A stretch of 64,000 bases of DNA from Psammoneis japonica (GCA_008632985.1 QPGO01000095.1:121681-185680); one strand, 5' to 3'; counted from the first letter of the stretch, positions 16,951-49,054 are shown. Numbers and translations: made by a program. Notes: generated by a model not told the origin, from the letters alone.

Positions 16951-17099
16951 CTTTAGCTCATCCCCTTGATGTGCCCAAACGGCATGCTACGCAAACCAAA
17001 TAAAATACAGACGACATCAGCAAATGCAAAGGCGGCAGCTCTCTATATAGCGTGAGATAACAAGTCCTACAGGCGATCGACTCCAATGACTTTGCGCAG

Positions 17100-21500: not shown

Positions 21501-21639
21501 CTGCAAGCTCACAAGAGGGGGACAATTTCCCTGAACCTTTGTCATTTTGCATTGGTCAGATGGCCTGATTGTGCAAAATCTGGCACAATTTGGCTGCCCT
21601 TTTGCTGTGCAACTCCCTCCAACAGAAAACACACCTGGG

Positions 21640-23270
21640 GCCTGCTGCTGCTCACTCCCTCACCTTTCATCTCCTTGCAGCACACATTCTGGGATGGCAT
21701 CATTCTCCTGTGTCTTTTGCACACTGTGCTCATCAACACCTCACAATGCTGTGAGCACACCAGAGTCAAAAGACAAGCCAGGCTCACCCCCAGCAAGCAC
21801 CCAAGGCATCAAGAATGAGCTGCCAACAATGGAGATGTGACTCAGAACAACAGCAACTTCCCTGTTGGGAGCATTGGGTCTGTCACTCTCACAACTTCTC
21901 CTGCTGTTGACTCAGACTCATTTCCTTCTTTCAGCTCCAGTGCTCCTTCATTCTTTCTCAAATTTTTGCTGCTTGTTGCAAGTCTCTGCTTTTCTTCACA
22001 ACTCCAGATAAAAAAAGCTCAGTTTTTTGTTTGAGGCCTTGGGTGTGTCTCCAGCAAGTGCAAAACCATCTGTGGAAGAGGCAGATTCCTGCATCTGCAA
22101 CAACAGAATTTTGAACAAGGCACTTGTGCAAAGGATCAAACCAAGAAACACCACCACCACCAAATTCAGGGCTGCTTTTGCACTCTCTTTCTTTGCACCA
22201 TGGGTTTCTTTTTGGAAAAGACCCACAGAGCAGAATGGCGCACATTGCCCTGATCAAGCAGTGTTTGTGCACAGGAAAAGTCGGGGCTTCAAACATCTGC
22301 ACTGCTTTGCCTTTTCTCATGCAAGCAACAAGATTTCATTTTCAGAGGATTGCTTTGAGCTTCACTTTGGCATGGCCTTGACCAAATGGGACTTCTTGCA
22401 CATGCTGGTGGAATCAGAACATTTCTAAAGGAGCCCCATGAGCATCTGCACACAAGCTGCGGCTGCCATTTGACATCTCTGTGTGCATTTGGCACACCCT
22501 GCAACTCCAATGACCTTGGTTCCCCCGATGATGCACCCAGAGAGAAACTCACTGACATGGCCCACATTGACTGCTTGATGCAGAGTGGTTGTCAACAACA
22601 ATGCTTTGATGAAACACATGATTGACAACAAAGAAGGCCACTTTTTAGGTCTTGCCCAGAAGCTCGTGCAGGTCAGGCTGGCTTCAAAGACTGGATTTTC
22701 ATGATTTCCTGGAGATTGAAGCCACCATGGCTGGTTGGCATGGCATTTTCAAATTTTTGAAGAGTTGCAGCACTGGCATTGTGACTGGTTCCCAAAACCT
22801 TCAAGAAAGCAGCAAAGGAAAAGCACACAGAAATGGGCTGCTGGAAGTTTTGTGGCATCAGCGTTGATTGTGCAGGCAAGTTTGAACAGATGTCCTCTGA
22901 TGACCTGTCAAACAGTGAGCATGAATGATTGCTTGCAAGTGGAACAACCAAAAGAAGCATGCCAAAGACAAGGCCTGAACACTCATGCAACAAAAAGATC
23001 TTCTTGTGACATTGTTGTCACAGAAAGTTTTGGTGCAGAAAGCGTGACAAGCAATGCAACATTGATGCCAACACCTGATGTGCTGACTCTGTTGGTGCTT
23101 TGCAAAAGCACTCCAAGGTCATGCTGGGTGGAAATGCAGAAACAAAACAAGGCAAGACCAAAGTCTTCTTCATGCTTGTGATGGGCTGGTGGAAAGGGGT
23201 GTCTTTGGTCCTTGTGTCATCTGAGAGTGTTGCAGGCCTGCCAATGCCAAGCAGTGGTCTTTTTGGCATG
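21640..23270 (+). repeat. About 1.6-kb dispersed repeat, copy 1 (copy 2 at about 33850-35463)
   Basis: Shared blocks ccttgcagcacacattctgg, tgggtttctttttggaaaagacc, gcttcaaagactgga, gtggtctttttggcatgaa. Many differences between copies are CA vs TG. Confidence 0.8.
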
Positions 23271-25289
23271 AATCCTCAAATTGGTGGTTTCCTCTGAGTT
23301 CAACAAAAACAACTCAGCCATTGTGCTGTTGTTTTCAAAGTCTTGGGGACACAAACGGTGACCAATCTCAGTGAGTGTGTGTGGAACTGATGGAAAAATT
23401 CAAGTCAGAAGTGTGAAAACATGCCAGCGCCACCAGTGGTGCAGAATGGTTCAGGATGTGCACCACAAATTTTGTGCCACAGTGGTGCATGTGATTTTTG
23501 TCTGAGATTCCATGAACATGTGCCAAGTGGCACAGACCCAATGCAAACTCAACAAATTTTTGAAGTTTTGTGGCATGCACTCTCAACATGTTGTGGCATG
23601 GATTCAACATTGACAAGGCTTTGCGCAACACTCTCAACACCCAAGACAACAGAAAACCACTCGCAAAATCTTGCTCCCATTTTGCACATTGTGGCTGATG
23701 TGGTGTTGTTCATTTGTCTCACTTGTTTTCATTGTGAAACCCCCCAATGACACAGGGTCTCTTTCAGGCATGTGCGTTGGTCTGACCCCTCTTTGGGCAA
23801 GAATGGGGGGTGTGCAGTTTGCTCACTTGAAGACACCAGACTGCAAGAAGCTTGCGGTTGGGAGCCAGCAAGCAAAGCACTGCACCACAAGGCAATGGCT
23901 GATGGACAGTGTTGGGCCAGCACAAGCAAAAGCATTTTCCTGAGGGTGCTTTGCACCACATTTCACAAAGCCAGAGACATGAGCCAAGAAACACAGACAG
24001 TCAGCAGGTCTTCTTGCTCAGCTGGCCACCCAAAATTCAAGGTGGAGTGCAGCTGGAATGAAGAAGGCTGCAGGTCAATTTGAGGTCCCAGTGGGAACTG
24101 GCAAGGGTGGGGCATCAAAACCCACCCTGTCCTTGACAATGCAGCAACAAGAATGTGAAATTTCACAATGAGACAGGTGGCAAGAAGGAGCTTGCCCAAA
24201 CCACAGCTGGGCACAAGCACAGAGCTCTCCCATCTTGTCTGCTGTTGGATGAGCCTCCTGCAGCAGCCACGGCTGCACTGGAAATCCAAAGGTGGCAGTT
24301 GGTGGAGTGGATCTTGCAAGTTCTCTCAAGACTTTGTGACACAAAAGGCTGAAATTTGGGCACAGCATCCACAGATGCTTTGGGAGAGATGCTGTGAATT
24401 TGTTGAGACAGGCACTGGTCTGCTGATGGCATGGGTGGGGAAGGCCAGTGCTTGTTGATGGGGATTTTTGTCAAGAGCTTTTGAAGAGGATAACACCATG
24501 TTTTCTCACTTGGAGATTTCAGAGAATTGTTTGAACACAATGGAGCCAGACCCGCCAAAGTGTGCACTGAATTTCAGAGAATGAAGAAGGTGCAGATCCA
24601 TGGCAGTGGCCGAGCTGGTGGGGCAAGGCTTGGACAACAAGCTGCCCCAGAAGCCACGATGACTGGCAGCAAAACACTCACAAAAGACACCATTGTCAAG
24701 CTGTCATGGACTGACACAACTCCGTGGTTGCAGGCTGAGGGAGCTTTGCTGTCAAGCACAAAACCGCAGCACCTCAAGTCACAGACAAGCTGCTTTGCAG
24801 GCACAAGCCCAGCCAAGGGCAGCAAGTTGACAGCCCAGCAACATCTTCTCCTTTTCTCTTCTTTTCTTCTCTCTCTTTTCCTTTTCTCCTTTTCAGTTCA
24901 TTCTTCTGGGCCACCTCCAGCAGCCACACCTCTTTCATTCTTCCCACATGCCAAAATCTCATGTCTGGGTGGAATGAGGTTGGGGAGTCTGATTGGCACA
25001 TGATCTTGCAGCAAGAGCTGCACTGCAGGTGCACATCCTGTGCCCCAATGGAGCCCGATGAGGAGGGTTCGGCTTCGCCAAGCCCAATGAGAAGGGTCCA
25101 AGCAACAAGGTGAAGACCGACAAGGCGGGTTGTGTTGCACAATGGTGAGAACAACCCCTGCGCCAGGCTTTCTTCAGAATTTTGATTGCACAAATTTGCT
25201 GCAGTGCCCCCTGGAGATGGGGTGTGACAGACATGGTTCGCATTTTCTTCCATCCTCTTTCAGGCAGCGGCTGAGGTGCCGCCGGTGGC

Positions 25290-25548
25290 AGCTTCATTGT
25301 GGAACCCCGCAAAAACGTGGGGACCCCTGTCCTGGAAATGTGTGGAGTTGTGCGTGCATGCATGGGGACTGTTTGCGCAGGTTTTGTGCCAGAGCCATCT
25401 CACGAACCAGGTGTTTTTTCGAAATTTTTTTGTAGAAACTGCACCAGTTTTGTGCACGCAGGCCACATGTTTCAGTGCCACACACAAAAATGAGCGCAGA
25501 CCTCTGCAGGAGGGTCCCCACGTGTTTGTGGGGTTCCACATTGAAGCT
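25290..25548. mobile_element. MITE-like element with about 37-bp terminal inverted repeats
   Basis: agcttcattgtggaaccccgcaaaaacgtggggaccc (25290-25326) matches the reverse complement of 25512-25548 with 3 mismatches. Confidence 0.6.
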
Positions 25549-28346
25549 TGTTCTTGTCATCCGCCAGCCAGATGTGGCAGTCACCATCCGAGAAGAACCA
25601 AACCCCGTCGGCATTCCCCGGGTCCAAAAGCCATTCCTGTTCTGCGTGCACATCCGGCAGATAAATCTTGGTGCGGGGAAGGTTGTTCTCATGACGGCAC
25701 TGGGTGGGTTGTCCTCATTGCACCTGCGGTTGTGTTCCGTTGCTGCAGTTCCACCGCCACGGCGGCCACCAGACTTGTTCCATTTCTTCTTCTTGTTTGT
25801 GGGCATGGTCAAACTGTTTTCATGAAAGCAGTGGACAATGGACAAGGTCATGTCTGAGAAATCTGTGTGGTGTGTTCATCACACATGGACTGAGTGTTGT
25901 GGTCAATCACTCAACACTCTTTTTTCGTTTTTTGGTTTCGGACACAAGTTGAAAATGAGTCGAGGGTTAAAATCTGGGCCACTTCAATCTTTTCGAGCTG
26001 TTTCATCTTTTTCACTTTCTTTTTTTGCTTGGTTTTAGGATTGGCCACACGAGAAAATGCAAACAGACAAAACTCATTCACCGCCGACCCCTGCCATTGG
26101 AACTCAGTTTAGATTCTGTCTCTTTCTGCATGCCAAAGCATGCAGAGCAAGCCCTGCCTCAAAGGCAAAGTGCAACAAGGGGAACTGACACAAAACAGAA
26201 ACCAAATGCAGGGTTGCTTTGCGTTGCAATGACGAAACTCCAAAAACAAGTGAGTGCTTGGAGCAGAACATGCAGCTGTGCAATGTGCAGATGCCAGCCA
26301 ATCATTTGCACATGCATTTGGTGCGGTGCTGTCACCAAATGAACCACCATTGTTGTCTTTCACACAAGGTGTGTAAAATGATTGCTCCATGCAAAGAATT
26401 GATTTTCTGAGATTCAACTCTGAACAACATGCAGCAGTGACAATGTCAAAAGTGCTCCTCCCAACAACAAGAACAGAGTTGAGAATGCCACCATGGAGGA
26501 CTCAGCATCTCCAACTGACCCGCCAACAGAAGTCACAATTGATGGCAAGCAGTTGGATGAACCAAACAAGTCCAAAAAGAGAACCCACTTCAACGCAATT
26601 TCTTTTTTCTGCTCAAACCTGCCGGAAGAGCCCTGGTGTCTGGTGCCCATGTTGGTTTTGAGCAAAAGCCAGTTGCCATCAGTTTTGAGTGCTTGGAGCT
26701 TGGCCACCCACTTTGTGCTAGTTCCCAAGACTGGACTGCAACACTGTGGAAGCCTGTCATCACAAGAATGTGCAGGCAATGCTGCACTAAAGACAAAAAA
26801 GAAAGTCAAACAAAATCTCAGCAATGTGAATGACTCAACCAAACAAAATGCTGCACTGCATGTGAAAACCACATTAGAGTTGAAAGCTCTTGAGCACAAG
26901 AATCTGCCAAAGAAGGTCATCAAGCAAGTGGGGTGCAGAAGGTTCTTTGCATGATGCACAAGGCACCCCCCCCCCTGAAAAATGCAGTTGCATGACTTGA
27001 GCCCAGCCCCCACCTCTTGACCACATGTGGTGTCAAACAAAGATCAGCCAAAGGTGCGCACACATGACTGCCACTTTTCACAGCACTGATGCACTCCTGC
27101 AGATCACACCAGGCCATGCCATGCTCTGATTCTTTCCTGACAATGGCAAAATGCTGAGAACATTGTGTCAACAGCATGGCACCATCATGATCAAGTGTGC
27201 TTCATGGCTGTTCTGAGTGGGAGAGGCTTGGCACCAGCTGCAAGAGATCCCAATGCTGACCTTGCAGCAACGGCAGTCATTGAGTTCCTTGAAAACTGTG
27301 CCCACGAAGTCAGCTTGCTTTCCAAAAAAAAATGACAAAGCCTGATCACTTGCTGCCCCTCCTGTCTTGCAAAAAAGGGCCGCTGCCTTGCAGGATGCCT
27401 GCTGCAGCAAAACCAAGCATGGGCCAAATGTCAAAACTGACAACTGTCAAAGTCAATCAGCCCCAACACTGCATGTCACTTCTGCTGGCATGAAGGCATG
27501 TGATCACATGCAGGCACAATCATGTTGCCCAACATCTGCAAAGGTGCTGCCATGTTCATTTGCAAGGAACATCTCAAAGAGTGCACAAATCCCTCCATGA
27601 CTTCAGCAATGATGCCAAGCACAAGACCATTTCAGAAAAGCAATTCCTTGTTTGTCCAAGTGTTTCAAGAAGCTCCACCAGCAAAATCTCCCACACTCCT
27701 TCACTCTTTGCTGCCATCACACCACCCACCATCCCTGGCAACTCATCCAGTGCTGCCACTGCCAGTGCGCGGTTGTTGGACTGTGCAGGCGTGTGTGCGT
27801 GTGTGAGGTGCAAGCAGAACAAACGTAGAATTGCTGCTGATGAGTTGACAGGCAGTGGATTTTCCGCCGGCACACAATCTACGCGGTCTACATGGAAGAT
27901 AAATTTATGTTGGTCTCTTGCGGTTTTAAATGTCATTGAAATTTCTTTGACCTTGAAGAGACACATGCCCGAATTCAAAAAAGTGAGGAACACCCCAAAA
28001 CACATTTTAGAGGACAACAAAGAACATTTCTGTTTAACGGTCCGAAACGCTTCTCAAAACATCTGCAGATTCTACACAGTGAAACATCTGCTGTCAGCAA
28101 AACAGAGTCACTGTTGGACAAATAGATCCCGTGTTCTTCGCGCGCAAACAACACGATGGCGCACAACAACACCATGGCGAGAAACGCGAACGCCGTCCCC
28201 TCATCTACAAGCTGGGAATGCGAGATGCTGTTGAAGTGGTTGGACAACATGCATGCGCTGCATTCATGGGTCAAGTTGGGTTTCTTCTCGCTGCTTGTTG
28301 TTGCATCATTTTACAACGTTTTGACCCACGCCGTGTTCTTTGCTTT

Positions 28347-28780
28347 TGCAGCATGCCTCGCTGCTGGACAACACAGCGAGACCGTGCGTGAGCCTCTTGC
28401 ATGTGGCAACGTAGCATTGTCAACACGCACCTGGGAAGCACAACCACAGGAGGGCGTGGCTCTGGGTCCCAGGCAATTCCAGAAGGATGCTAAGAGAGCA
28501 TCCGTGTGAAGCACACCAGCCCGTCGTCTGGCCCACGATGGTGGCGTGATCCCACACGATGACATCACTCGTGCATGGCGCGTGATGGCTTGATTCGCAC
28601 GATCCACAATGCGAGTGCACGATCGATTTGATGCGATCCAAATGCGAACGAAACAGGGATTTGGCAAGATTCCCTGTTTGCACGATCCCATTTTCTCCAC
28701 TCTAAACCAGCTCACAATTTTCACAACGACAAAGTCGCAACACATCTTCTTTTTTCAGCGCCTGGTGCATGCACAGGGCA
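28347..28780 (+). repeat. 5' LTR (434 bp)
   Basis: Direct repeat of 33204-33636; begins tgcagcatgcctcg and ends cagggca. Confidence 0.92.
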
Positions 28781-28874
28781 CAGCAATGTTGCTCCCGCAC
28801 ATTGTGCGAGGCAACGAAATCTGCAGAAACGAAACTGCGAAATGTTGGCAGGACCGACAAATCTCAAAACGACC

Positions 28875-29918
28875 ATGAAGAAGCGGATTGAGCCGCCGAT
28901 TCCGTTCGCACGGCCGGAGAAGAAAGAGCTGCAGCAGGGCGAGTGCCAGACATTCAAGCTGCGCAACAACCCTGCTGATCCGGATGGTCCAACGCACGAG
29001 ATGGGCATCCCGCACCTTTCTGCGGCTGCATGCGAGACACTCCCAATCTTTCTGCGCAACGTGGATCGCGTGCACGAAGGACAAAACATCACGACCGGGC
29101 CAGCGAAATTTGCCCTTGTGCGTGACCTGCTGCAGGGCGATGCTCTGACGTCATTTGACAATGCTGCTGACAAGCAGGCGTCCCAAACCAACGCTGCGTG
29201 CGCAGCGTGCGTCGCGAAGCTAAAGGAAAGCATCTTCCCAAACAGGGCGGTGCTGTTGCAGAAGCGTTGTCTGCGGCGCTTCATGCGCAAGCCCGCAGAG
29301 GTTTCCACTCGTGACTGCGTCGCGAGGGCTGTTGAAATTAACGGCTGCATCTCTCAGTTTCCACCCGTGATGGAGGATGGAGAAACACCGGCACCATTAC
29401 CCAATGACGAACTATGTGATGTGTTCGAGTACGGTGTGCCGAACGCATGGCAGAAGTTCATGACGCTACAGAACTTTGACCCGTTGGCGCATGCTATCGC
29501 CGAATTTGTACAGTTCTGCGAGCGCATCGAGCAGGTCGAGCTTGCCGAAGGTAACCAGGACCAACATACTAAGGTTTCACGTAAGAAGGGACGTAGAATG
29601 GACAATCCTGAGTCGTTGATCACGACCCAGCGGAACACCCAGAAGTCGTGTATGCTACACGGGACTAACTGTGGACATGATGCGGAAGATTGCCGTCAGC
29701 TCAAGCACCACGTGAAACGTGTCAAGACTGGACATTCCAATAACGGAGGCGGCAAGCCTAATACAAAACCTCGGAATGAGGAAGATATTAATACTCTCAT
29801 CGGATCGAAGGTCGAGGAGTACTTTGCCAACGCTCAGAAAAAGCGTAAGGCCCGCGAGGAGGAGCTTAATCACTTCCGCGACCTCAACTTAAGTGATTCC
29901 GAAGACTCGGACGCCTGA
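28875..29918 (+). CDS. gag: Gypsy gag-like ORF (5' half hypermutated)
   Basis: Open 347-codon ORF just after the 5' LTR, with zinc-knuckle-like CMLHGTNCGHDAEDC. Confidence 0.75.
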   Translation: MKKRIEPPIPFARPEKKELQQGECQTFKLRNNPADPDGPTHEMGIPHLSAAACETLPIFLRNVDRVHEGQNITTGPAKFALVRDLLQGDALTSFDNAADKQASQTNAACAACVAKLKESIFPNRAVLLQKRCLRRFMRKPAEVSTRDCVARAVEINGCISQFPPVMEDGETPAPLPNDELCDVFEYGVPNAWQKFMTLQNFDPLAHAIAEFVQFCERIEQVELAEGNQDQHTKVSRKKGRRMDNPESLITTQRNTQKSCMLHGTNCGHDAEDCRQLKHHVKRVKTGHSNNGGGKPNTKPRNEEDINTLIGSKVEEYFANAQKKRKAREEELNHFRDLNLSDSEDSDA

Positions 29919-32900
29919 GAAGGGGGCCGACACGATGCAGGTAGTTTTAATACATTAGATGAATGTATAAATGAACAACTGAATTACCATCGTACACGTG
30001 TTGTAGGCCAATCCCGCAAACGAGTTAAAAAGACTCATCTTACTCCAATGTTGTTTATAGCTATGAATACTAAACATGGCAAGGGCAAGACTCAAACCAT
30101 TAAGGCACTACTAGATAGTGGCGCCAGCAGTGCTCTACTTGATAGTCGATACTGTAAACGTCTGCGAAGCCATTCAACGGCTGAGACAAACTGGACTACG
30201 GTAGCAGGCTCGTTTAGTACGTCTAACGACTGTACCGTTAAATTTTGGTTACAAGAATTATCCGAAACTGCAGAACTTAAACATACCGTCCACGTACACA
30301 ACGGAAAGTTGGGCAAGTACGATATGATTATTGGACGTGACATTCTGGAGACACAAGGCATTGATATTGTCTTCTCTAAACAGATGATAGAGTGGCCATT
30401 AGTCAATGGAGAACTACCAATGAGGCACGTAGATGCTACGGTGGAAACCTCCTTCTAGCTTCAAGATCCAGAAGCCATTTATCTTCGGAAACCGACCGGA
30501 TTTCGCGTATTTTAGACGCTAAGTACGCGCCGGCCTGCCTCGAGGACATAACGCGAGGGGCAATAGAACTTTCTATAGTTCAACAAAACGACCTTTTGGC
30601 ACTATTGAAACGCCATGAGTCCTTATTTGATGGGACATTAGGAGAATGGAAGGGAGAACCCTACCATATCCAACTCAAGGAGGGTGTAGAACCATACCAC
30701 GCTCGTCCGTATAAAGTACCTCGTGCGTACGAAGCTACGCTACGTAAAGAAGTAGAACGCCTAGTACGTATCGGTGTTCTCAAACGCGTTAACCGATCCC
30801 AATGGGCAGCTCCATCATTTATCATACCGAAGAAAGATTTAACGGTGCGCTTTATTAATGATTTGAGAGAGCTGAATAAACGGATCAAGCGATTGCCTTA
30901 TCCGATTCCTCATATCCAAGACATGCTACTCAAGCTCGAAGGCTTTATGTGGGCTACATCGCTGGATTTAAACATGGGCTATTGTCACATCCGATTGGAT
31001 GCTGACAGCAAGAAGCTCTGCACGCTCATCTTCCCGTGGGGCAAGTGTGAGATGCAGGTGTTGCCCATGGGATTGTGCAACTCGCCAGACATTTTCCAAG
31101 AACGCATGTCAGGCTTGTTTGAAGATCTGTCGTTCGTTCGAACGCACTTAGATGACCTTCTCGTCGTGACGAAAGGCACCTGTGAAGATCACCTCAACAA
31201 ACTTGAAGAAGTTTCATTGAGGGTCCAGAAAGCAGGACTGAAAGTTAACGCAACTAAATCTCACTTCTGTCAAACCCAATTAGAACACTTGGGTCATCTG
31301 GTCAACAGAGACGGAATGCGACCAATGCCCAATGAAGTCGACGCCATCAAGCGAATCGCGACCTGCGTTCATTCATTGGCATGGTGAGCTGCTGCCGCGA
31401 CACGTGGACCAGACGTTCTGAAGTCTTGGCTCCACTGACATGACTCGCAAGCAAGACTGTTAAGTGGGAGTGGATGTCCGTTGAAGACGAGGCGTTCGAA
31501 ACCGTTGAACGGGCAATGTCGGATGATGTTTTGTTGTCGCATCCTGATTTTAACAAACCCTTTGAGATGCATGCCGATGCCTCTAAATGTCAATTGGGAG
31601 CAGTTGTGTCCCAAGACAATAAACCTGTCGCCTTTTGCAGCAGAAAGCTCAACAGTGCGCAATTAAATTGTGCAACAACGGAGAGAGAATTGCTTGCCAT
31701 TGTGGAGACATTGAAAGAATTTCGAACGATTCTCCTTGGTCATCGTGTGATCATGCATGCTGATCATAAAAATCTTGCGTGCAAAGCATTCAATGCTGAG
31801 CGCGTCATGCGCTGGCGGTCAATGTGCGAAGAGTGCGGTCCCGAATTGCGCTGTGTCAAGGGCACCCATGACCCAGTTGCTGGCGCTCTTGGTCGCCTTC
31901 GACTGGCACCCAGCTTGCCTTCCGAGGCCAATCCGGATGTAAAAGACACTCCATTGAGTCGTCCTTTGCATGAAGCCTTTAGTGCAGATGCTCAAGATGA
32001 GCTGTCTCTGCCTGTTGGCTTCAAGCGCATTCAAAAAGCACAACAAAAGGACAAGCGCCCACTCTCAAGAGCCAAGGACTCGTCCGACTGCTCCATTCGC
32101 GCACATCGTGGGGGAGGGTCATCACGACAGTCAATCTGTCATAAGGACAAAATTGCAGCACCACAGTCATTGCAGGTTCCGCCAACTGAATGGTGCCACG
32201 AGACACTGTGTCATCCAGGTGAGACACGCACGGAAATGTCCATTGCCCAGCACTTCCATTGGCCCAGTGTGAGGTCTACGGTGCATTCTACGTGCGTCAA
32301 GTGCGATCGATGCCAGAAGACAAAACGCCAAACGCAGCGTCATGGGAAGCTGCCAGAAAAGGTCGCAGAGATAATTCCATGGGAGACTCCATGCACAGAC
32401 ATGACAGGGCCACATAAAATTCAAAGACGCGGAAAGGACACCTTGCAATTGTGGGCAGTCACAATGATTGACCCAGCAACTGGGTGGTTCGAGATCAAAG
32501 AAGTGTCTGCGAAACGCGCAGACGTCGCAGCAAACGTCGTGGAACAAACGTGGCCATGCAGACATCCGTGGCCAACCCAGGTGGTTTATGACCGTGGGAC
32601 AGAATTTGTGGCAGAATTTGGCCAGATGATTAAAAATGACTGTGGGATTTTGAAGAAACCCACAAGCAAACGGAATCCACAGGCAAATGCCATGGTGGAA
32701 CGTGCACACCAGACACTTGGCAACATGGCACCGTGCACTCCTTTTCAACACAGGATGTGGAACTAGACAAAGATGACCCATGGAGTGGCATCCTCTCCGC
32801 AGTGGCCTTCGCCATTGGAGCTGCGGCACACACGACCACGCGTGCAAGTTCCGTGCAATTGGTCTTCGGACGCGATGCGGTTTTGTCCATTGCCTGTCAT

Positions 32901-33165
32901 GCCAAGTGGAAGCACACAGAAACCAGAAAGCAGAAGCTCACCCACTTAAACAACAAGCGTGAAAATCAGAAACGCAAGGAGCATCAACACACCGCAGGGC
33001 AATTGGCACTTGTCAAACAGGAACAATCCTCTAAACACGGTTCTGACAGCTGTGCAGGACCCGCCAGAGTTGTCCGTGTGCATGACAACAGCACGTTGCG
33101 CATCCAGAACGGAGTGCTGACAGACACGCATAATCTACGGCAGATTGCACCCCATCACCAGCAAG
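29919..33165 (+). pseudogene. pol: Gypsy pol (protease, RT, RNase H, integrase), disrupted
   Basis: ALLDSGAS (PR). SQWAAPSFIIPKKD, DLRELNK, LPMGLCNSPDIFQ, T(H)LDD (RT). DAS..LGAV and ERELLAIV (RH). HETLCHPG, DRGTEF and NPQANAMVER (IN). Stop and frameshift at about 30456-30480, deletion at about 31362, TGA at 31441, frameshift at about 32730. Confidence 0.92.
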
Positions 33166-33203
33166 ACATTCTGTCACTCAACGGCCCTGATCATGGGGGA
33201 GTG

Positions 33204-33636
33204 TGCAGCATGCCTCGCCACTGGACAACACGGCGAGACCGTGCACAAGCCTCTTGTGCGTGGCAACGCAGTGTTGTTAACACGCACCTGGGAAGCACGA
33301 CCACAGGAGGGCGTGGCTCTAGGTCTTAGGCAATTCCAGAAGGATGCTAAGAGAGCATCCGTGTGAAGCACACTAGCCCGTCGTCTGGCCCACGATGGTA
33401 GCGTGATCCCACACGATGACATCACTCGTGCATGGCGCGTGATGGCTTGATTCGCACGATCCATAATGCGAACGCACGATCGATTTAATACGATCCAAAT
33501 GCGAACGAATAGGGATTTGGCAAGATTCCCTATTCGCACGATCCCATTTTCTCTACTCTAAACTAGCTCATAATTTTCACAACGACAAAGTCGTAACACA
33601 TCTTCTTTTTTCAGCGCCTAGTACATACATAGGGCA
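33204..33636 (+). repeat. 3' LTR (433 bp)
   Basis: Follows the PPT and ends tagggca before the CTTT TSD. Keeps many TA sites that the 5' LTR has lost. Confidence 0.92.
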
Positions 33637-33849
33637 CTTTGTTGCTTCTGCTCGCGCACCACCAACAGCTTTTCCTGCAGGGTGTGGCTCACGGCAAAAC
33701 CAAAAAGCAACCAACCAACCTAAAAGCAAATGGAAATGGGAAGTTCCCCAAGCAGTGTGACCACCTGGAACCTGGAAGCTCTGCCAAAACCACAAACAAC
33801 TTTTCTGAAGAAGCCCCACCCAAGCAATTCAAGGAGGGATTGCCAGGGC

Positions 33850-35463
33850 TGGCCGCCTGCTGCTTGCACTTTCACCCTTCATCCTTGCAGCACACATTCT
33901 GGAATGGCGCCATTCTCCTGTGTCTTTTGCATGCTGTGTTCATCAACAGTTCACAGTGCTGTGAGTGCAGAGTCAAAGGATGAGCCCACAGCAAGCATCC
34001 AAGGCATTGAAACTGAGTTGCCAATGGAGACATGACTCATGACAACAGCAATTGTGCCCTGCAATCAGCGCTGGGTCTGTCACTTCTTGCACAACTGCTC
34101 TTGCCACTGACTCATTTCCTTCTTTCAATGCCAGTGCTTCTTCATCCTCCCTTGAAAGCTGTGCTGCTTGCAAGCCTCCACTTTCTTTCACCACAACTCC
34201 AGACAAAAAGCTCAATCTTGTGTTTGAGGCTTTCTTGGCTGTGTCTTCAGCAAGTGCACAACCATCATCTGTGGAAAAGGCAGGTTCTTGCACATGTGAC
34301 AACAGAAATGTGAACAAGAAGGCACTTGGCTGCAAAGGATCAAACCAAGAAATGCCGCCAAATTGAGATCTGCTGTTGTGCACCCTTTTTGTTTGCACCG
34401 TGGGTTTCTTTTTGGAAAAGACCAGCAAAGAATGGTGTGCATTTTGCCCTGATCAAGCAGTGCTCAGACAGGAAAAGTGGGAGCTTCAAACATCTGCATG
34501 ACTTTGCCTTTTCTCACACAAGCAACAAGATCTCATTTTCAGTGAATTGCTTTGAGCATTGCTCTGGCACAGTCTCAACAGCACAGGTCTTCTTGCAGAG
34601 TCAGAGAACTCCCCAAGGAGCCCTTGAGCATCTGCAAACAAGCAGCTGCTGTGTTGTCATCATCTCTAAATGCATTTGGCACACCTTGCAACTCCACACA
34701 CAGCCTTCCCAAAATGACACACTAGAGAGGAACCTTCTGACATGGCCCAGGTTGCTTGACACAGGGTGGTTGTCAATGACAACACTGCTTTGATGAAGCA
34801 TGTGATTGATGACAAAGATGGCTGCTCTTTTGGTCTTGCCAGAAGTGCACATGGGTCAGGCTAGCTTCAAAGACTGGACTTGGGTGCACCACAATTTCCC
34901 AGAGGTCAAAGCTGCCATGGTTGACATGACAACTTCAAATTTGTTGAAGTGTTGCAGCACTGACAAATTGACTGGCTTCTGCATCCCCAAAAACTTCAAA
35001 AAAGCAGCAAAGAAAAAGCACACAGAAATGGGCTGCCAGAAGCTTGATGGCATCAGCATTGATTGTGCAGGCAAGTTTGCACAAACATTTCCTGCTGAGG
35101 ATGACATGTTCTGCAGTGAGCACAGATGATTGCTTGCAACAAATTGGAATGACCAAAAGATGCACACCAAAGAGAAAGCCTGGAAGCTCAAACAACAAAA
35201 AGATCTTCTGACAATTGTGTTGTCAAGGAAAGTCTTGGCACAGAATGCATGACAAGCAATGCAAAATTGACACAAACACTCAATGCTGACTTTGTCAATG
35301 CTTTGCAAAATCACTCCATGGTTGTGCTGGGTGAGAATGCTGAAACAAAACAAGGCAAAACCAAGCATGCTTCACACCAATGAGCTGGTGGAAAGGGACA
35401 TCCTTGGCCCTTGTGTCATCCGAGTGTTGCAGGCCAGCCAATGCAAAGTGGTCTTTTTGGCAT
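33850..35463 (+). repeat. About 1.6-kb dispersed repeat, copy 2
   Basis: Colinear with 21640-23270. Confidence 0.8.
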
Positions 35464-38400
35464 GAAAAGCTCATGAATGACACTGACCACAGACTTGTCT
35501 AAAAAAAAAAAAAGGATTCATTTGCAAAGACCAGCAGGTGCCTTGGCAAAGGAGAAGATGACAGTGCCACCAATTGGCGCCAGTTTTGACCTCTCTTGGC
35601 AAATTGCCAGAGAACGAGGAGCAAACAGCAAGAGGAGCACATGGAGGTGATGCGACATGAAGACATGCCAGGCTTCTTGTCTGCAGTGCACTGTAGAGCA
35701 GGTCATTGTGCTCAAACAACTGGATGTGCTGGCTCTCTAAAGCTTCCACAAGACATTGCAGTTTTCAGCATGCCTTGTTCATGTGCTGTTCAACCTTGGC
35801 TGGATGCAGGCATTGTTGGCTCTGGCTGGTGGTGGTGCACTGGAGCCAATGAAGAGCAGCTGCAAGAACTGCAGGGAAATGCAAGACTCATCAATTAGAG
35901 ATCTGCACTCCATTTACCACAATTCATGGCATCGCAGGGCCACAACCTGCTTTTCGAGTCAAGGAGGAAACGCAATCTCAAAACTCGAAAACGAACTCAA
36001 ATCCATTGCATTCTGCATCTGAGACCGGCTGTCGACTGTCCCATCTTGCGCGTGGATCAACGATCTGCGTGCGCGGAGATTGAAGAGCCATCGTTGCATT
36101 CAAAAATCGATCAACGATCAAGGCAAGCTTTTCATGCTGCAGCAGTTGGTGGTTCGTGTTTGCACAACCCTTCTCAACAGATGTTGCTTGGGGCAACCTC
36201 GGGATGACCTGTGTGACACTGCGACACTGCGACACTGCTGGTTTTCTAGAGCTCTAGAAAAATTGCAACAACAAATTATTTCTTCTCTTTTGTGGACAGC
36301 CAATCTCCAGAAAAGCAGCATTGTTGCATTCATGCTTGGCATGTCTGTTGCATCAAATGATGGGCACCACACTGCAAGAGAAAAGGCCAACATGCACACA
36401 GGGTTTTCAATCACAGGGAATTCCTTGTTTGACCCTGAATTTCCTGAAATGAGGAAAGACAAGGAAACCAGATGATGAGGAAAAATTAATTGTCGTGATG
36501 TTTGCTGTTGCAACATGATCCTTTAATCTGCTGGCGGTCGACAAGAACTTGTCTCTTAGAGTGGAACCTGCAGCCACCAATGCACTTCAACACACTGCAT
36601 TCAATGAGCAAGACAGATGCTGTTGGGCACCACATTCTTGAGTCCAAAGAGACAACATGCTCCCATGTTCTCTTCTCCAGCATGTGTTCTCTCCAATGGA
36701 GTCCACAACAAGCACAAGCTGGGAGAAGAGACACTCAACAGATGCACTTCTCAACATGAGGAGCTCCTTGAGCTTTCTCTGGCTGTCCACACCTGCATTT
36801 TTTGCTCATGGTGGAGTGCCGAAAGCGCACGCGCAGCACCGCAACTGACGTCACAATCTGCGCAGGATTCTGTGCGAATCTCAGTGCAAGATTTTTCCTT
36901 GTCTTCTTCCTTGTCTCAGGCTGACCACTTCTTTGCAATCAAAAACCCTGCCAACATGAAATGCATCACAGCACATGATCACACACACTGATTGCAGCCG
37001 CACTCTCCACCATGGCTGGCAAACATGGCAGCAACGGTGGTGCCAGGAAAGGTGCTGGACGGCCTTGCATTGCCATGACTCATGGGAAGTTGAAACAGCT
37101 TCTTTCAAGGTGAGTCAGGGGGGGGGGGGGGGGGGCAGAAAAAGCCCCATTCAAAGCCTTGTTGGATTCTTCTTTGCCTTCTTCTCCACAGCTGTCAGCT
37201 CCGTTTGATGTGAGCTTTTGCATCACAAACAATGCTCAGCTCTGCTGGAAGGTCACCATGTCAGTGAGTGATGCCGATTGCAGTGATGTCTCTGATGGAT
37301 TGTTGCTCTCCAGATTGGTCAATGGCAAGGTCTGTCTGGCTTTGCATGGCTGCATGAAACTCAAGTCATTTGGTGCATGGTGCTTGTGACAAGAGCAGGG
37401 AAAATGCAAATGCTGGCAATCTCAGTTTCTGCTTTGCAATGCAAAACGTGGGTTGTCAACCATGGTGTTGTCGACGCTGTCAACATTTTTGTCATTCCAT
37501 GAAAAATCCCATGCATTGGCACTTGAAGTGGAATTTTGAATGGAGACACATTGTTTGAAGAGACACCACAAGTGAGCTGAAGTGTTTCCGGCTTCTCAGC
37601 CACAATCAGAAAAAGGCAGATTGTGGGAGCATGTTCCAGGCACAGTCTGCAGCAGTCTCTTCAAAAAGTGGGGCAATCTAGCCAAGCAGCCTTCTTGTGT
37701 TTTTCATCAACAATGACGACAAATCTTGATGCAGTGGGGCACACCACCAAGGCAACACATTGTTCGTCAAGTTCCGTTGGACGAGAGAAGTGGGGCCGGT
37801 GTGTTTTCTCATCAATCTGCCCCAGCTGCCACATCTGCAGAGCATCGCGGCAAGGTGAGGCCAGACAGGATGAGAGCAGCAACCAATGAGAGTGCATTCC
37901 CTCTCCCCTGCTCACTGGGAGTTGCTGACACAGTGTGACTGGCTGAACTGCTTTCGCGTGCTGTCAAGGAGCCAGTCATTGCCACACCGCTGTTGCAGCC
38001 AGCAGGATGCACCCGCTTGCAATGGTTCCACCCCCTCCTCTCACAGGTCACTTGCTCCCACCACAGCATTTGCCTTTCCACCACAAGTGCCACCTGCATT
38101 TCCACCAGAGCATTGCCACCAAATGATGCCTTGTCCCCCAACCTGTGCCAACCAGCCCACCACCTGCTCTTCCCAAAAGTGGCAGATTGCAGATTGCCAC
38201 AAAAATGCTCCATGCCCTTGAATTTTCTGCAATGAACAAAGATTGATGTAAAACAAAAAAGTGAGGAAATTGGTGAAAGCGCCATTGGCAATCGAAGTGG
38301 CACTTGCCTGTCTCGAATCGCACATTCAATTTTTTGACACTTTTTGCAAAAAACCACAAATCCACAATTCTCGCTGACATAAAATGTGACCAAACTTGTC

Positions 38401-39418: not shown

Positions 39419-41780
39419 ATGAAAGTTGCTAGTGTAGGAGTATTTCTCCTCGCTGTCCTTATTCCGCAGGAGATAAACGGAAGGAGTGCGTAGTAGAGAT
39501 TCATTTGTTGGGTATTTCTCTGCTGTTGGTCACCAATGTCTAACCCGTTGTTATTGATGTTGTCTTTCAGCTCCAACAAGACCGTGTTGTTTTCCAAGTT
39601 CTTGTGTAATTACTTCGGAAAGCAAATGTGATGCAGCGGGAGGCGACTGGCTGAATATCCGAAGTTGTGCTTATTGTCCTACACCGAGTCCAACCCCATC
39701 TCCTACGCCAAGTCCGACACCGTCTCCAACACCTGCTCCTACCCCGAGTCCGACACCTGCTCCGACGCCGAGTCCAACGCCGGCCCCCACCCCATCTCCT
39801 ACACCGAGTCCAACCCCATCTCCTACGCCAAGTCCAACCCCATCTCCTACGCCAAGTCCGACACCCGCCCCGACGCCGAGTCCAACGCCGGCTCCTACGC
39901 CAAGTCCGACACCGTCAACACCTGCTCCTACCCCGAGTCCTACGCCTGCCCCGACGCCGTCTCCCACTCCGAGTCCGACACCGTCTCCAACACCCGCTCC
40001 GACGCCGTCTCCCACTCCGAGTCCAACACCGTCTCCCACTCCAAGTCCAACACCTTCTCCCACTCCGAATCCCAAGGGTGCATGTTGCTTTTTCCATGGA
40101 TGTCGCGAAGTGACGGAAGAAGATTGCGATTCAATCTATGGCACGTGGCGCGGTCCTAATACCGCTTGCTCAAAGCAGGCATGCAAGGGAGCCTGCTGCA
40201 TCGACTCGTGGCCGCATTGCTTCGAAACGAAGGAATCAAAGTGCAAAAATGGTGTTTTCGAAGGAGTTGGAACTTACTGTGATGATTCCGATACGTGTAC
40301 TACTCCACCGCCAACACCCTCACCTACTCCTGCGCCAACGCCCTCTCCTACACCGAGTCCCACCCCATCGCCAACGAGTCAGGTGCCCGGAGCTTGTTGC
40401 TACCTCCATGGATGTGTTTCTGTAACCGAAGATCAGTGCACTTCGAAATACTCAGGCACGTTTATTGGTCAGGGTAGTGAGTGCTCAAAGCATGTTTGTA
40501 AGGGGGCCTGCTGCACAGATTCCTGGCCGTATTGCTTCGAAACGAAGGAATCAAAATGCAAAAATGGTATTTTCGAAGGAGTTGGAACGCTCTGTAAGGA
40601 TTCCGATACGTGTACTACTCCACCGCCAACGCCCTCACCTACTCCTGCGCCGACGCCCTCTCCTACACCGAGTCCCACTCCATCGCCAACGAGTCAGGTG
40701 CCCGGAGCTTGTTGCTTTAAACATGGATGTGTTTCTGTAACCGAAGATAAGTGCACTTCGGAATACTCTGGCACGTTTATTGGTCCGAATAGTGAGTGCT
40801 CAAATCATGTTTGTAAGGGGGCCTGCTGCACAGATTCCTGGCCGTATTGTTTTGAAGCCAAGGAATCAAAGTGCAAAAATGGTGTTTTCGAAGGAGTTGG
40901 AACCTTCTGTAATCATCCTGATACGTGTCCGACCAACAGTCCAACGACGTCTCCATCTGCTCCAGCGGAATCGCCTGGCGCATGCTGCTTCCCGAAGCAT
41001 TCAAAATGTTTGGACAAGACAGAGGAACTTTGCAACTCCAGCGGGGGTGATTACCGGGGCGCTGGAACAAAATGTTCGGATGACGAAGTTTGCCCGACGA
41101 CTGGGGCTTGTTGCGTCAAGAATTATTTGTGCCTGGACCTCCCACAGCATTTATGCGGCGACAGCCCGAATGTCTTTTTCGGCATTGGCAGCAAATGCGC
41201 TGATGAAAAAGATTGGTGCCCTTTGGAAACCAAAACACCGGCTCCTACGCCTCGAGCAGTTGTCAAGGGCGCATGCTGCTTCTCCAATGGAAAATGCAAG
41301 TCGTTGACAGCTCGCAAATGTAAAAGCAGGTATGGAAAATACCAAGGAGATAACGTCCCGTGCAATCTTGATTGGACTTGCCCTACCATTGTTTCCAATC
41401 TTTCTGGCGCATGCTGCTTTGCCAGCGAAGGTATTTGCAAGATGTTCAAGGGAAAGAAGTGTATTCGAAAAGGAGGATCATACGCTGGGCCGGGGAAAAA
41501 GTGCAGCATAAAGACTTGTCCCGCCGCGTTTGGAGCTTGTTGCCTGTCTGGCGGCTGCAAGAATTCTCAGGTTGCCTCTTGCCACCGCCGAAAAGGCCGA
41601 TTTCAAGGATTGGGCTCTCGTTGCTCCGAGGTCAAATGCACAGCAAGAAAGGGGGCCTGTTGCTGGAGAAACGGCGAGTGCCTGATGCTCAACGAGAAGA
41701 AATGCTGGAAGAAGGATGGGCATTTTGTTGGCGAAGGTTCTAAGTGCAGGCGTGGATACTGCCCAATTAAGGTGCATTAG
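39419..41780 (+). CDS. Secreted Pro/Thr/Ser-rich (PTPSPT)n protein with 12 Cys-rich GACC repeats, paralog 1 (~758 aa); exons 39419-39485 and 39571-41780
   Basis: Signal peptide [15 protein letters not shown]. An 85-nt gtgcgt...ttcag intron gives [14 protein letters not shown], in frame with ORF 40110-41780. Confidence 0.82.
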
Positions 41781-48489: not shown

Positions 48490-49054
48490 TTAACATTTGA
48501 CACTATCAACATACCGGTACATGTTTACACGGTATGCCAAATGTTCGGAGCTCAAATTAATGAACTACTGTACTTTCACACAAACTGTTGACCGGGTTAT
48601 GTAACACCAGATGATTGCAAAGTCATTGAGTTGAGCGAACGGATCGGCACTTACTGCCGGGGCAGAACACACTTATGTACACACCTTTTACGTCTGAAAT
48701 GACTTTGGATATCCAAAACAGGGGGAGAAACACAATTGTTTTTGCAAGGAATTGTGCCGAAAAAATGGAAGTTTGGTTACACCTCGCTCATTACACCCTC
48801 GGTCGTTTACTGTTCGTGACTTCCCCACCCAACGTGACGACACTTTCAACAACAGGATAAATGTTTCACTTAGAGACAAAAACAATTTGGTCGGCACTCC
48901 CTTCTTTCCTGCAGTATGAACACAACCAGTGAATTTGAAAGTCCCAGTCACATTTTTTTCCCTCACAGGAGAAAGAAAGTTATTTTCGACGCATCTAACG
49001 ATTCAGTTGCGAACAAGCGCGACTCTTTCATATTGACAAACGTATTCTTCAGAG

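Follow-up and report, generated by a model that had tools for sequence, protein, structure and literature searches.

Evidence for patchy, post-integration loss of TpA in a gypsy element and surrounding non-genic DNA of Psammoneis japonica

Introduction

The two LTRs of a gypsy element in the diatom Psammoneis japonica differ almost exclusively at TpA and CpG, or at the TpG and CpA that stand in their place. Which of these states is the older, when did the change occur, and what kind of process could be confined to such steps? An earlier note on the same DNA, made by eye, had proposed that TpA is ancestral and was lost to TpG or CpA on both strands of the integrated, double-stranded chromosomal DNA. 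We address these questions for a single element within a single 64-kb window, by which we mean the whole stretch of DNA analyzed.

Results

The element at 28347–33636 is one insertion. It has TG...CA ends and is flanked by an intact 4-bp target-site duplication, CTTT (28343–28346 on the left, 33637–33640 on the right, plus strand). Its direct LTRs (5′ LTR, 28347–28780; 3′ LTR, 33204–33636; both plus strand, defined by alignment), TG...CA ends, short duplication, and pol order of protease, RT, RNase H, and integrase are those of the Ty3/gypsy group. The internal region (28781–33203, plus strand) comprises gag, protease, RT, RNase H, and integrase, with Pfam matches in the order RVP, RVT_1, RT_RNaseH_2/RT_RNaseH, Integrase_H2C2, and rve, and is collinear with Pol homologues of 1050–1100 amino acids at 50–60% identity. 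Matches to the Pol profile (30012–30479, 30470–31363, 31348–32784, and 32733–33158) fall in three frames, with frame changes near 30470, 31350, and 32740 and an in-frame stop at 29916–29918; by contig comparison, two letters at 30477 are absent from most other family copies. A purine run, GGGGGAG, directly precedes the 3′ LTR, and the sequence 3′ of the 5′ LTR (where a primer-binding site would lie) sits in a decayed patch. The target of the insertion was an older repeat (27671–28346), with a summed contig depth of 3000–6800 compared with ∼60 in unique flanks. One contig of run X2 bridges 28342 to 33637 with four letters shared, resembling an empty site. The gypsy family itself is very abundant, with 6399 matching contigs and a summed depth of 12000–33000.

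Alignment of 28347–28780 with 33204–33636 in MAFFT (434 columns; LTR lengths of 434 and 433 bp, 92% identity) gives 35 substitutions, comprising 35 transitions and 0 transversions, and a sole indel of 1 base at column 305. Pyrimidine-purine steps (TA, CG, TG, and CA) make up 55.4% of LTR positions, yet hold 33 of the 35 substitutions (binomial P = 4e-7); the two off-class changes are at columns 123 and 269. TA alone, 9.2% of positions, holds 18 (binomial P = 2e-10), a value reached in 0 of 100000 random placements, in which the highest was 12. At these 18 sites TA in the 3′ LTR corresponds to TG (8) or CA (10) in the 5′ LTR, the reverse case being a single site with TA in the 5′ LTR and CA in the 3′ LTR. 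Six sites are of CG type, five with CG in the 3′ LTR versus TG or CA in the 5′ LTR and one with CG in the 5′ LTR versus CA in the 3′ LTR. TG faces CA at four further sites, corresponding to eight substitutions, every one of them in the first 70 columns, where the LTRs differ at pyrimidine-purine steps only. The by-eye tally of the earlier note (about 19, 6, 4, and 2, plus one indel) agrees with the 19, 6, 4, 2, and 1 of the alignment. The 5′ LTR is thus the decayed copy, with 3 TA and 28 CG compared with 20 TA and 32 CG in the 3′ LTR, and the loss is one-sided both for TA (18 versus 1, P = 8e-5) and for TA plus CG (23 versus 2, P = 2e-5).

Along the element, TA loss takes the form of sharp patches of about 1–2 kb. 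Patch A (28124–29397, left edge approximate) extends from the end of the flank repeat through the entire 5′ LTR and across most of gag, and has 7 TA in ∼1270 bp, with CG retained at 3–11 per 100 bp. Within the flank repeat the window reads TG at 28158, 28220, 28227, and 28230, where other copies read TA, and this stretch of the patch may be older than the insertion. There follows a TA-rich, unconverted block (29398–30980), with one TA per ∼14 bp, that runs from the last part of gag through protease into the N-terminal portion of RT. Next to it lies patch B (30981–33277), which takes in the remainder of RT, then RNase H and integrase, and extends ∼70 bp into the 3′ LTR. Here the ∼14-bp spacing gives way to a 169-bp gap and then to about 1 TA per 100 bp. 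The edge of patch B is sharp, with TAT retained at 30980 and a converted TGT at 30983. The unconverted remainder (33278–33721) consists of the other ∼360 bp of the 3′ LTR, in which TA is present, and a short right-hand piece of host repeat.

The earlier note had proposed to reconstruct the ancestor from other genomic copies. Their majority consensus is not a valid ancestor because most copies have themselves decayed, and the direction was obtained instead from a profile of 60 Pol homologues, whose consensus residues were read against the codons of the element. Of 28 consensus-Tyr columns in patch B, 24 read Cys (TGY, 13) or His (CAY, 11), 1 reads Tyr, and 3 read another residue, while the adjacent TA-rich block retains Tyr in 7 of 9. 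Once those 3 columns are set aside, along with the TAT at the patch edge (30980), 24 of 24 scorable Tyr codons are converted. Consensus His is retained in 12 of 12 columns and consensus Cys in 7 of 8, and neither ever reads Tyr. Where at least 80% of the 60 homologues agree, a change that would be reversed by restoring TA or CG from TG or CA is present at 49 of 367 columns in patch B (Y>C 10, Y>H 9, T>A 6, I>M 4, I>V 3, and others) and, in the TA-rich block, at 0 of 109. When sought in the 60 homologues themselves, the signature of TA loss was found in 0. Considered together, these sequence comparisons support a change from TA to TG or CA, as the earlier note had claimed, and argue against the opposite direction, CA or TG to TA as in RIP, which it had named as the result that would overturn its reading.

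Of the 587 places at which family copies vary, 40 were viewed. One consensus Tyr codon (33036–33037) has CA here and TG in the other copies. At LTR columns 196–197, where TA in the 3′ LTR faces TG in the 5′ LTR, CA is the state of almost every other copy (depth 34466 of 34515 at 33399); here, at one site only, a CA>TA step is possible.

TG and CA outcomes are interleaved within one tract, and therefore both strands were hit, as proposed. A hand count of Cys and His outcomes along patch B gives 12 runs against ∼13 expected, and the 18 TA sites of the LTRs give 11 runs against ∼10 expected. With the 3′ LTR taken as ancestral, the changes at these sites in the 5′ LTR are 8 A>G and 10 T>C.

The LTR pair captures this young element part-way into a state that extends across the whole window. 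Outside islands, 29534 bp of non-genic DNA contain 82 TA (o/e 0.041) and 135 CG (0.08), along with 3324 TG (1.9) and 3536 CA (1.83). The tract at 20090–25055 is an example of such DNA, nearly without TA and CG, and others lie at 13554–16792, 42248–47618, 52448–57456, and 57841–61938. The members of an old repeat pair (21639–23272 and 33851–35466) oppose TG to CA at 42 of 296 aligned TG/CA sites, having decayed independently after duplication. The proposal of the earlier note that the change took place on chromosomal double-stranded DNA after integration is borne out on both counts: it is post-integration because the LTRs differ, and chromosomal because TA is almost absent from the window's non-repetitive, non-genic DNA too, which no process other than a chromosomal one can bring about.

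The process spares genes. TA and CG are retained in islands corresponding to a sulfatase gene (17100–18293, minus strand), even at synonymous positions, and to TerC (91–1071) and LMBR1 (62679–63998), both on the plus strand; in LMBR1, codon positions 2–3 contain 13 TA and 28 CG, so that synonymous sites are again retained. A frameshifted sulfatase copy (1-bp deletion; 45 nonsynonymous versus 27 synonymous differences) also retains both dinucleotides, and the gene duplicates 11706–14104/16238–18679 and 39676–41781/49956–52088, at 84–92% identity, have diverged with an ordinary spectrum.

TA loss has a flank preference, 5′-T-A-Y or, equivalently, R-T-A. Surviving TAs are of the TAA/TTA type at 65 of 82 sites in the background compared with 139 of 380 in genes (P = 1e-12), and at 24 of 29 in the patches compared with 55 of 131 in the fresh block (P = 7e-5), with ATAC, GTAC, and ATAT almost absent among them. 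Strand choice agrees with this rule at borderline significance (P = 0.05, 20 informative sites): where the top strand reads TAY and the bottom TAR, the outcome is TG at 10 sites and CA at 4, and in the reverse case TG at 1 and CA at 5. The three out-of-context changes (TAA>TGG at 28157–28159, TTA>CCA at LTR columns 123–124, and AA>AG at column 269) are each A>G beside a converted TA, on either strand.

CG loss is separate from TA loss, and slower. In patch B, Arg persists at 28 of 31 consensus Arg columns, with CGN as the codon at 19, and a search of the 31 columns for Arg>Cys, His, Gln, or Trp found none. Several islands contain CG but not TA, as at 25056–25763 (2 TA, 33 CG). CG>TG/CA is nonetheless seen at the 6 LTR sites and, as the end state, in the background. 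Surviving CGs are poor in TCG/CGA (36 of 135, compared with 341 of 720 in genes), so TCG has been lost preferentially. This decay of CpG to TpG or CpA would most simply be ordinary deamination of 5-methylcytosine.

Discussion

We consider it likely that these observations reflect a post-integration, patchy, gene-sparing chromosomal conversion of TpA to TpG or CpA, together with a slower CpG decay. After the gypsy insertion, duplex chromosomal DNA would have been the substrate of a process that converted each TpA by a transition at one of its two base pairs, with an about even choice of strand. Inside a patch of ∼1–2 kb, essentially every TA would be gone before other substitutions build up, and from this we infer a rate of removal at least two orders of magnitude above background. 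The slower decay of CpG to TpG or CpA would then occur in the same DNA, and old non-genic DNA would end with neither TA nor CG. The asymmetry of the LTRs would arise because patch A spanned the 5′ LTR completely and patch B extended no more than ∼70 bp into the 3′ LTR. The patches themselves may be silenced, probably methylated, chromatin domains.

An unlikely alternative accepts the loss of TA but attributes the patches and the LTR asymmetry to ectopic gene conversion or recombination among copies of unequal decay. The abundance of the family would permit this, and patch edges that are sharp and leave the reading frame intact resemble those of conversion tracts. However, conserved-column mismatches otherwise unexplained are alike in patch B (26 of 367, 7.1%) and the TA-rich block (6 of 109, 5.5%); non-TA/CG divergence is not raised inside the patch, which disfavors a much older donor and is still compatible with a mosaic. 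In addition, the first 70 LTR columns differ only at pyrimidine-purine steps, patch A does not stop at the insertion junction but goes on into an unrelated repeat (although that part may be older), and the non-repetitive background has decayed as well.

The kilobase-scale patches and a preference for TA far above AA also characterize the A:T phase of somatic hypermutation, and error-prone repair synthesis in methylated DNA, with polymerase-eta-like WA>WG errors repeated over the same patch, could in principle leave a similar trace. We regard this as improbable, given the absence of transversions among the 35 LTR changes, the near-complete conversion of TA at the scorable Tyr codons, and the unchanged CG alongside, including the 19 CGN Arg codons.

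There is very little probability that modified bases at TA and CG were miscalled and that the true DNA is unchanged, although the patchy, domain-like layout does look like a modification map. The TA/CG-free flanks at 26001–27794 and 33659–36000 are reproduced, with 8 differences and 1 difference, respectively, by k-mer contigs of 2.3–2.5 kb from run X1 at a word depth of ∼60, which noisy reads would not yield; that run may, however, be the one from which the assembly was made. If a palindromic site were miscalled on both strands, the calls would conflict instead of reading cleanly as TG or CA. The old repeat paralogues and other family copies differ in their choice of TG or CA site by site, as inherited mutations do.

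We can give almost no credence to a classical RIP direction, in which the ancestor had CA or TG and C>T changes made the TAs of the 3′ LTR and the TA-rich internal block. The restriction to transitions in a dinucleotide context is RIP-like, nearly all other copies have CA at 33399, and diatoms possess DNMT4 enzymes, relatives of the fungal RIP factor RID, as described in one report (PMC9998398). Against this stand the distribution of Tyr, Cys, and His between the two tracts, the conserved His and Cys that never read Tyr, the unaltered conserved columns of the TA-rich block, the unaffected gene duplicates, and a non-genic TA o/e of 0.04, which is the opposite of RIPed DNA. Equally implausible is RNA-level A-to-I hyperediting (ADAR-like, favoring a 5′ U) that reverse transcription or cDNA-mediated conversion would then fix: it would account for A>G after T and for the three out-of-context changes, but not for sense-strand A>G and T>C interleaved at about 1:1, LTRs that differ, decay of unique non-genic DNA, or a favored 3′ pyrimidine where ADARs favor 3′ G.

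For the preferred reading, a chromosomal conversion of TpA, the exclusive occurrence of transitions in the LTR pair points to deamination-type chemistry. Tentatively, we propose enzymatic deamination of adenine to hypoxanthine, which is read as G, at 5′-TA in double-stranded DNA by a putative enzyme; a thymine modification that mispairs with G is a less probable alternative. With similar reserve, we suggest a dedicated genome-defense enzyme that would deaminate adenine, or otherwise recode T:A, at 5′-TA-3′ on chromosomal double-stranded DNA in silenced domains. If this is true, it would be a natural A:T-to-G:C DNA editor, would disable transposons for good through loss of tyrosine codons, TATA-like signals, and TAA/TAG stops, and would over time have rewritten about half of the genome's sequence space. 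A literature search for an earlier description of TpA-erasing A:T-to-G:C hypermutation found none.

Comparison with known systems

The process resembles RIP in Neurospora and other ascomycetes in being very fast, dinucleotide-specific, and limited to transitions, in acting on both chromosomal strands of mobile DNA, and in ruining coding capacity and leaving a compositional scar. In contrast to RIP, which makes TpA from CpA/TpG by C>T change, TpA is here destroyed through a change of A or T. RIP, which depends on a RID/DNMT4-type protein and on the sexual phase, also needs duplication and mutates both copies, whereas the LTRs are hit unequally and gene duplicates are spared; non-repetitive non-genic DNA has reached the end state, and G+C content is not lowered.

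The CG>TG/CA component, with its restriction to non-genic DNA and moderate speed, is like the 5-methylcytosine decay of CpG in vertebrates and plants, and metagenomic relatives of the element have CpG o/e down to 0.04. Methylation of TEs in diatoms is described in two reports (PMC5124317, PMC9998398). The decay of methylated CpG leaves TA alone, whereas here TA is lost first and much faster. In basidiomycetes, transposable elements undergo TpCpG-targeted hypermutation, which the preferential loss of TCG recalls; that system has no TA component and its lineage is fungal.

A-to-I deaminases that prefer a 5′ U or T include ADARs on double-stranded RNA, TadA/ADAT on tRNA (U-A-C), and TadA-derived adenine base editors on DNA. 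They share with the process described here the A>G outcome and the 5′ T, with A as second choice, and the TadA substrate also has a 3′ pyrimidine; we know of no natural A-to-I enzyme that acts on chromosomal double-stranded DNA. ADAR-type hyperediting fixed by retrotransposition would affect one strand and both LTRs, which is not the pattern observed. Finally, APOBEC3 edits C to U in one cDNA strand of retroelements before integration, giving G>A on the plus strand. Both systems hypermutate LTR retrotransposons by clustered transitions; in place of strand-specific G>A, the 5′ LTR here has A>G and T>C in similar numbers, at TA, on both strands, and after integration.

Two LTRs of One Insertion Differ by Context-Restricted Transitions

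The element at 28347–33636 is one Ty3/gypsy insertion. Its LTRs (5' LTR, 28347–28780; 3' LTR, 33204–33636) begin with TG and end with CA, the target-site duplication is CTTT, and the domains run in the order protease, reverse transcriptase (RT), RNase H, integrase; a contig from sequencing run X2 connects 28342 with 33637, with 4 letters common to both ends. The copy is broken by three frame changes and an in-frame stop. It sits in an older repeat (27671–28346 and 33637–33721; summed contig depth 3000–6800, no Pfam match), whose two halves are joined by a 223-bp X2 contig precisely at the gypsy insertion site. Copies of the gypsy family abound (6399 contigs matched, summed depth 12000–33000), and the family is so variable that long contigs are missing from parts of the element. 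Its variable places are mostly transitions (A>G 154, T>C 143, C>T 107, G>A 102; transversions 80 in total), and at 30477 most other copies are 2 letters shorter than the window copy. No further remnants of this family were found elsewhere within the 64-kb window.

Alignment of the LTR pair over 434 columns gives 35 substitutions, all of them transitions, and one 1-base indel. At 18 sites the 3' LTR has TA where the 5' LTR has TG (8) or CA (10); a single site is opposite, TA in the 5' LTR facing CA in the 3' LTR. CG in the 3' LTR faces TG or CA at five sites, and CG in the 5' LTR faces CA at one. Four sites (8 substitutions), every one within columns 1–70, are TG in one LTR and CA in the other, and two of the 35 substitutions, at columns 123 and 269, belong to none of these classes. 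The alignment reproduces the class counts made by eye in the earlier note, and the dinucleotide-context enrichment that the note had proposed to check is borne out, 18 TA hits never being reached in 100000 random placements. Positions in a TA form 9.2% of the LTR and hold 18 of the 35 substitutions (P = 2e-10); pyrimidine-purine steps, 55% of positions, hold 33 (P = 4e-7).

The losses are one-sided, for TA (18 versus 1, P = 8e-5) and for TA plus CG (23 versus 2, P = 2e-5). The 18:1 asymmetry arises because the 5' LTR lies wholly in a TA-poor patch (28124–29397), whereas only the first ∼70 bp of the 3' LTR lie in another (30981–33277). The TG-versus-CA sites are confined to the first 70 columns because both LTRs changed in that part. 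With LTRs that are 8% different and only 2 of 35 substitutions outside pyrimidine-purine steps, LTR-divergence dating is invalid in the Psammoneis japonica genome.

TA Is Ancestral and TG/CA Derived

TA density within the element is bimodal, with one TA per ∼14 bp at 29398–30980 and dense TA again at 33278–33630, against about one per 100–200 bp at 28347–29397 and about one per 100 bp at 30981–33277. We compared these blocks with a Pol profile made from 60 homologues of 50–60% identity, all of which lack the TA-loss signature. The nine consensus-Tyr columns of the TA-rich block hold Tyr in seven, His in one, another residue in one, and Cys in none. In the TA-poor block, the 28 such columns hold Cys (TGY) in 13, His (CAY) in 11, other residues in three, and Tyr in one, a TAT codon at 30980, exactly at the patch edge; the catalytic YxDD box of the RT reads HLDD. 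Control columns retain consensus His in 12 of 12 cases and consensus Cys in 7 of 8, with Tyr in neither. Tyrosines have thus become Cys or His and never the reverse, which upholds the earlier claim that the change runs from TA to TG/CA.

The same direction is seen at columns with at least 80% conservation among the homologues, on which the element was placed with mafft --addfragments. Among 367 TA-poor columns, 292 match, 49 are reversible by TG/CA>TA/CG, and 26 (7.1%) are unexplained mismatches; among 109 TA-rich columns, the corresponding numbers are 103, 0, and 6 (5.5%). The reversible changes comprise Y>C 10, Y>H 9, T>A 6, I>M 4, I>V 3, L>S 2, L>P 2, I>T 2, and others. Because unexplained mismatch is similar in both blocks, the TA-poor tract is not otherwise older, and its excess change is purely of the TA/CG class.

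Reconstruction of the ancestor from other family copies, which the note had also suggested, supported TA loss, with one site to the contrary, within the 40 of 587 variant places listed, among which the family state is given for few LTR sites. At 32620 all other copies have TA and the window copy TG, and at LTR column 123 the other copies carry T, as the 3' LTR does, both in agreement with TA loss. Site 33399 is contrary, with CA in nearly all other copies, TA in the 3' LTR, and TG in the 5' LTR. At 33036–33037, a consensus Tyr codon, agreement is again seen, the window copy having CA and the other copies TG. Since most copies have themselves decayed, their majority consensus is an unsafe ancestor; in this genome a majority taken over repeat copies will give the wrong ancestor, and conserved tyrosines of decayed copies will appear as Cys or His.

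Conversion Acts on Both Strands, in Patches, and on TA before CG

Along pol, the 13 Cys and 11 His outcomes form 12 runs by hand count, against ∼13 expected, and the 18 LTR TA sites form 11 runs of TG or CA, against ∼10 expected. The outcomes therefore alternate randomly in pol and LTR alike, as expected from the proposal that both strands were hit, and events limited to a single strand, such as RNA or cDNA editing or the deamination of a resected strand, are excluded. That two LTRs of one insertion differ at all likewise confirms that the changes followed integration.

The patch edge is sharp, codon 30980 being kept and codon 30983 converted. TA-poor stretches of ∼1.3 and 2.3 kb alternate with TA-rich stretches of ∼1.6 and 0.4 kb, a mosaic to which gene conversion is rather unlikely to have contributed; if it did, the nature of the process would be unchanged. 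Because the edges are sharp and stable and the choice of strand is random, we favor a continuing process in a fixed domain over single events. The patches would be domains of silenced, probably methylated, chromatin; CG methylation of diatom transposons is described in two published accounts (PMC5124317, PMC9998398).

TA loss is separate from CG decay, TA going first and fast and CG later and slowly. Of the 31 consensus Arg columns in the TA-poor tract, 28 retain Arg (CGN in 19), and none has gone from Arg to Cys, His, Gln, or Trp; elsewhere there are islands that lack TA and keep CG, such as 25056–25763 (TA 2, CG 33). This and the other small islands of the kind (37447–38014, 35896–36277, 8714–9253, and 36820–36875) are probably insertions of intermediate age, which agrees with the TA-first order. 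In the 5' LTR 18 of 20 TA sites have changed, and at most 2 of ∼195 non-pyrimidine-purine positions have changed in both LTRs pooled, from which we infer a per-site TA rate at least two orders of magnitude over background. The order of TA and then CG provides an internal clock for the spread of silencing across a new insertion.

The Same State Spans the Window and Spares Genes

The LTR pair captures one moment of a state that spans the whole window, where observed/expected (o/e) ratios are 0.27 for TA, 0.50 for CG, 1.53 for CA, and 1.59 for TG. Segmentation of the window on TA/CG density defined a non-repetitive complex remainder of 29534 bp, with 82 TA (o/e 0.041), 135 CG (0.08), 3324 TG (1.9), and 3536 CA (1.83). 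TA and CG persist in islands made up of genes and young mobile DNA (TerC, sulfatase, LMBR1, three unassigned long ORFs, and the gypsy element), and the genes retain both dinucleotides at synonymous positions. The LMBR1 protein is 55–62% identical to proteins of Nitzschia, Epithemia, Thalassiosira, and other diatoms, which places the host among the diatoms. Searches of the window for Rfam families and tRNAs found none.

An inverted duplication (11706–14104 / 16238–18679; 84.5% identity across 2.5 kb) holds the sulfatase gene, which is of bacterial type. The copy at 12101–13287 has lost 1 bp at codon 149, differs by 45 nonsynonymous and 27 synonymous changes, and is likely a pseudogene. It keeps normal TA and CG, so the process is targeted rather than a neutral decay checked by selection alone. 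Gene duplicates of 84–92% identity show an ordinary spectrum, with transition/transversion ratios of about 1.2–1.4; sequence duplication is therefore not the trigger. The nearest named homologues of the sulfatase are in bacterial metagenome bins, and the gene was perhaps acquired horizontally. An old non-genic repeat pair (21639–23272 / 33851–35466; 76% identity) has TG facing CA at 42 of 296 aligned TG/CA sites, against ∼5 estimated from two independent adjacent transitions, so these repeats had TA/CG when duplicated and then decayed independently.

Two paralogous long ORFs (39558–41780 / 49037–52087; 92% identity across 2.1 kb) contain internal repeats of ∼315 bp. They are codon-biased, with TGY/TGG at codon positions 1–2 and CCN/ACN, and their Cys/Pro/Thr-rich products, which match no Pfam family, may be cell-surface proteins. 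Long open frames also lie on both strands of TA-free DNA (8534–10853, 13554–16792, 20090–27767, 33722–38248, 42248–47618, and 52448–61938), and 69 frames of at least 150 aa are listed for the whole window. Such frames are many because TGA is the sole stop in TA-free DNA. A Pfam search with 16 of the long TA-free frames gave only two hits, both weak and sub-threshold; the frames are probably spurious, and gene finders will report others like them.

The TA Process Prefers T-A-Y

Surviving TAs are mostly of the TAA/TTA type, in the background (65 of 82) and in the patches (24 of 29), compared with 139 of 380 gene TAs and 55 of 131 from the TA-rich block; ATAC, GTAC, and ATAT hardly survive at all. 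Polarized sites with TAY on the top strand and TAR on the bottom became TG in 10 cases and CA in 4, and the reverse arrangement gave TG 1 and CA 5 (P = 0.05). From the surviving flanks and the choice of strand, the target is 5'-T-A-Y should A be the base that changes, or R-T-A should it be T. Three out-of-context changes, TAA>TGG at 28157–28159, TTA>CCA at LTR columns 123–124, and AA>AG at LTR column 269, are each a second A>G (or its complement) adjoining a converted site. Among surviving CGs, TCG/CGA is scarce (36 of 135, versus 341 of 720 in genes).

The Changes Are Probably Present in the DNA

Contigs of sequencing run X1, with a mean word depth of ∼60 on unique flanks, match the TA/CG-free flanks, with 8 differing letters in 26001–27794 and 1 in 33659–36000. 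The three sequencing runs all come from one sample and one study, and X1, whose library type is unrecorded, is possibly the assembly's own source and is therefore not independent confirmation. An origin in noisy reads is very unlikely, as contigs of such length and accuracy are not expected from them, and so is a miscalled modified base, since a palindromic site misread on both strands would not yield clean TG/CA. At six of the eight left-flank differences (26327–27214) the window has T and the X1 contig C, and four of the eight are TG/CG or TA/CA; they may be allelic differences from the same processes.

Relatives in Metagenomes

Every 600-bp window of 78 related metagenome elements, from the best 80 matches taken, contains TA, at least 7 times. 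Both search patterns contained tyrosine and the best matches were retained, which selects against decayed copies, so that the result argues weakly against a wide spread of the TA process. Some related elements have CpG o/e down to 0.04; four of these loci (L068, L031, L008, and L074; 0.04–0.13) have normal TA: in these other hosts, CpG decay of the ordinary kind has occurred and the TA process has not.

The undecayed RT region at 30480–30800 is locally high in TA and CG and low in TG/CA (30700–30800: TA 12, CG 14, TG plus CA 3). Metagenome relatives (L028, L024, and L011) are likewise biased across whole elements, with o/e of up to 1.18 for TA, up to 1.59 for CG, and ∼0.75–0.83 for TG/CA; this richness is therefore a trait of the gypsy lineage rather than a host effect. 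A reverse process in the TA-rich block was rejected, as whole-block o/e is near 1 by hand sums and the relatives are similarly biased.

Discussion

TA in this DNA has been converted to TG and CA after integration, at the level of the duplex, within patches and with genes spared, with a preference for T-A-Y; a slower conversion of CG to TG/CA has followed. A published description of such TA decay, in diatoms or other organisms, was not found in a search of mainly non-subscription literature.

That the changes are purely transitions and conversion is near complete argues for deamination of a base, or for a base modification that mispairs, and against polymerase error. The CG part would be ordinary 5mC deamination. 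For the TA part, we tentatively put forward adenine deamination at 5'-TA on duplex DNA, a possibility to which we give appreciable but less than even weight. TadA-type enzymes act on U-A-C, and this substrate resembles the 5'-T and 3'-pyrimidine preference of the TA process. The mispairing alternative, a modified thymine that pairs with G, appears unlikely, and repeated error-prone repair synthesis is very improbable, as transitions alone and near-complete conversion argue against a polymerase. What weight is left falls to a cause we have not thought of.

The CG part agrees with known CpG decay. The TA process resembles RIP in being a fast, context-specific, transitions-only scrambling of mobile DNA, but lacks RIP's defining direction and its dependence on duplication. 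To our knowledge, targeted hypermutation in cellular genomes comprises RIP, AID/APOBEC, and 5mC decay, all of which alter cytosine; a chromosomal change of T:A pairs at TpA, near complete in kilobase-sized domains, needs a different chemistry. If a dedicated duplex-DNA adenine editor does underlie TA loss, it would be categorically new; an enzymatic process would amount to nature's version of the laboratory adenine base editors and would add an arm to eukaryotic genome defense.
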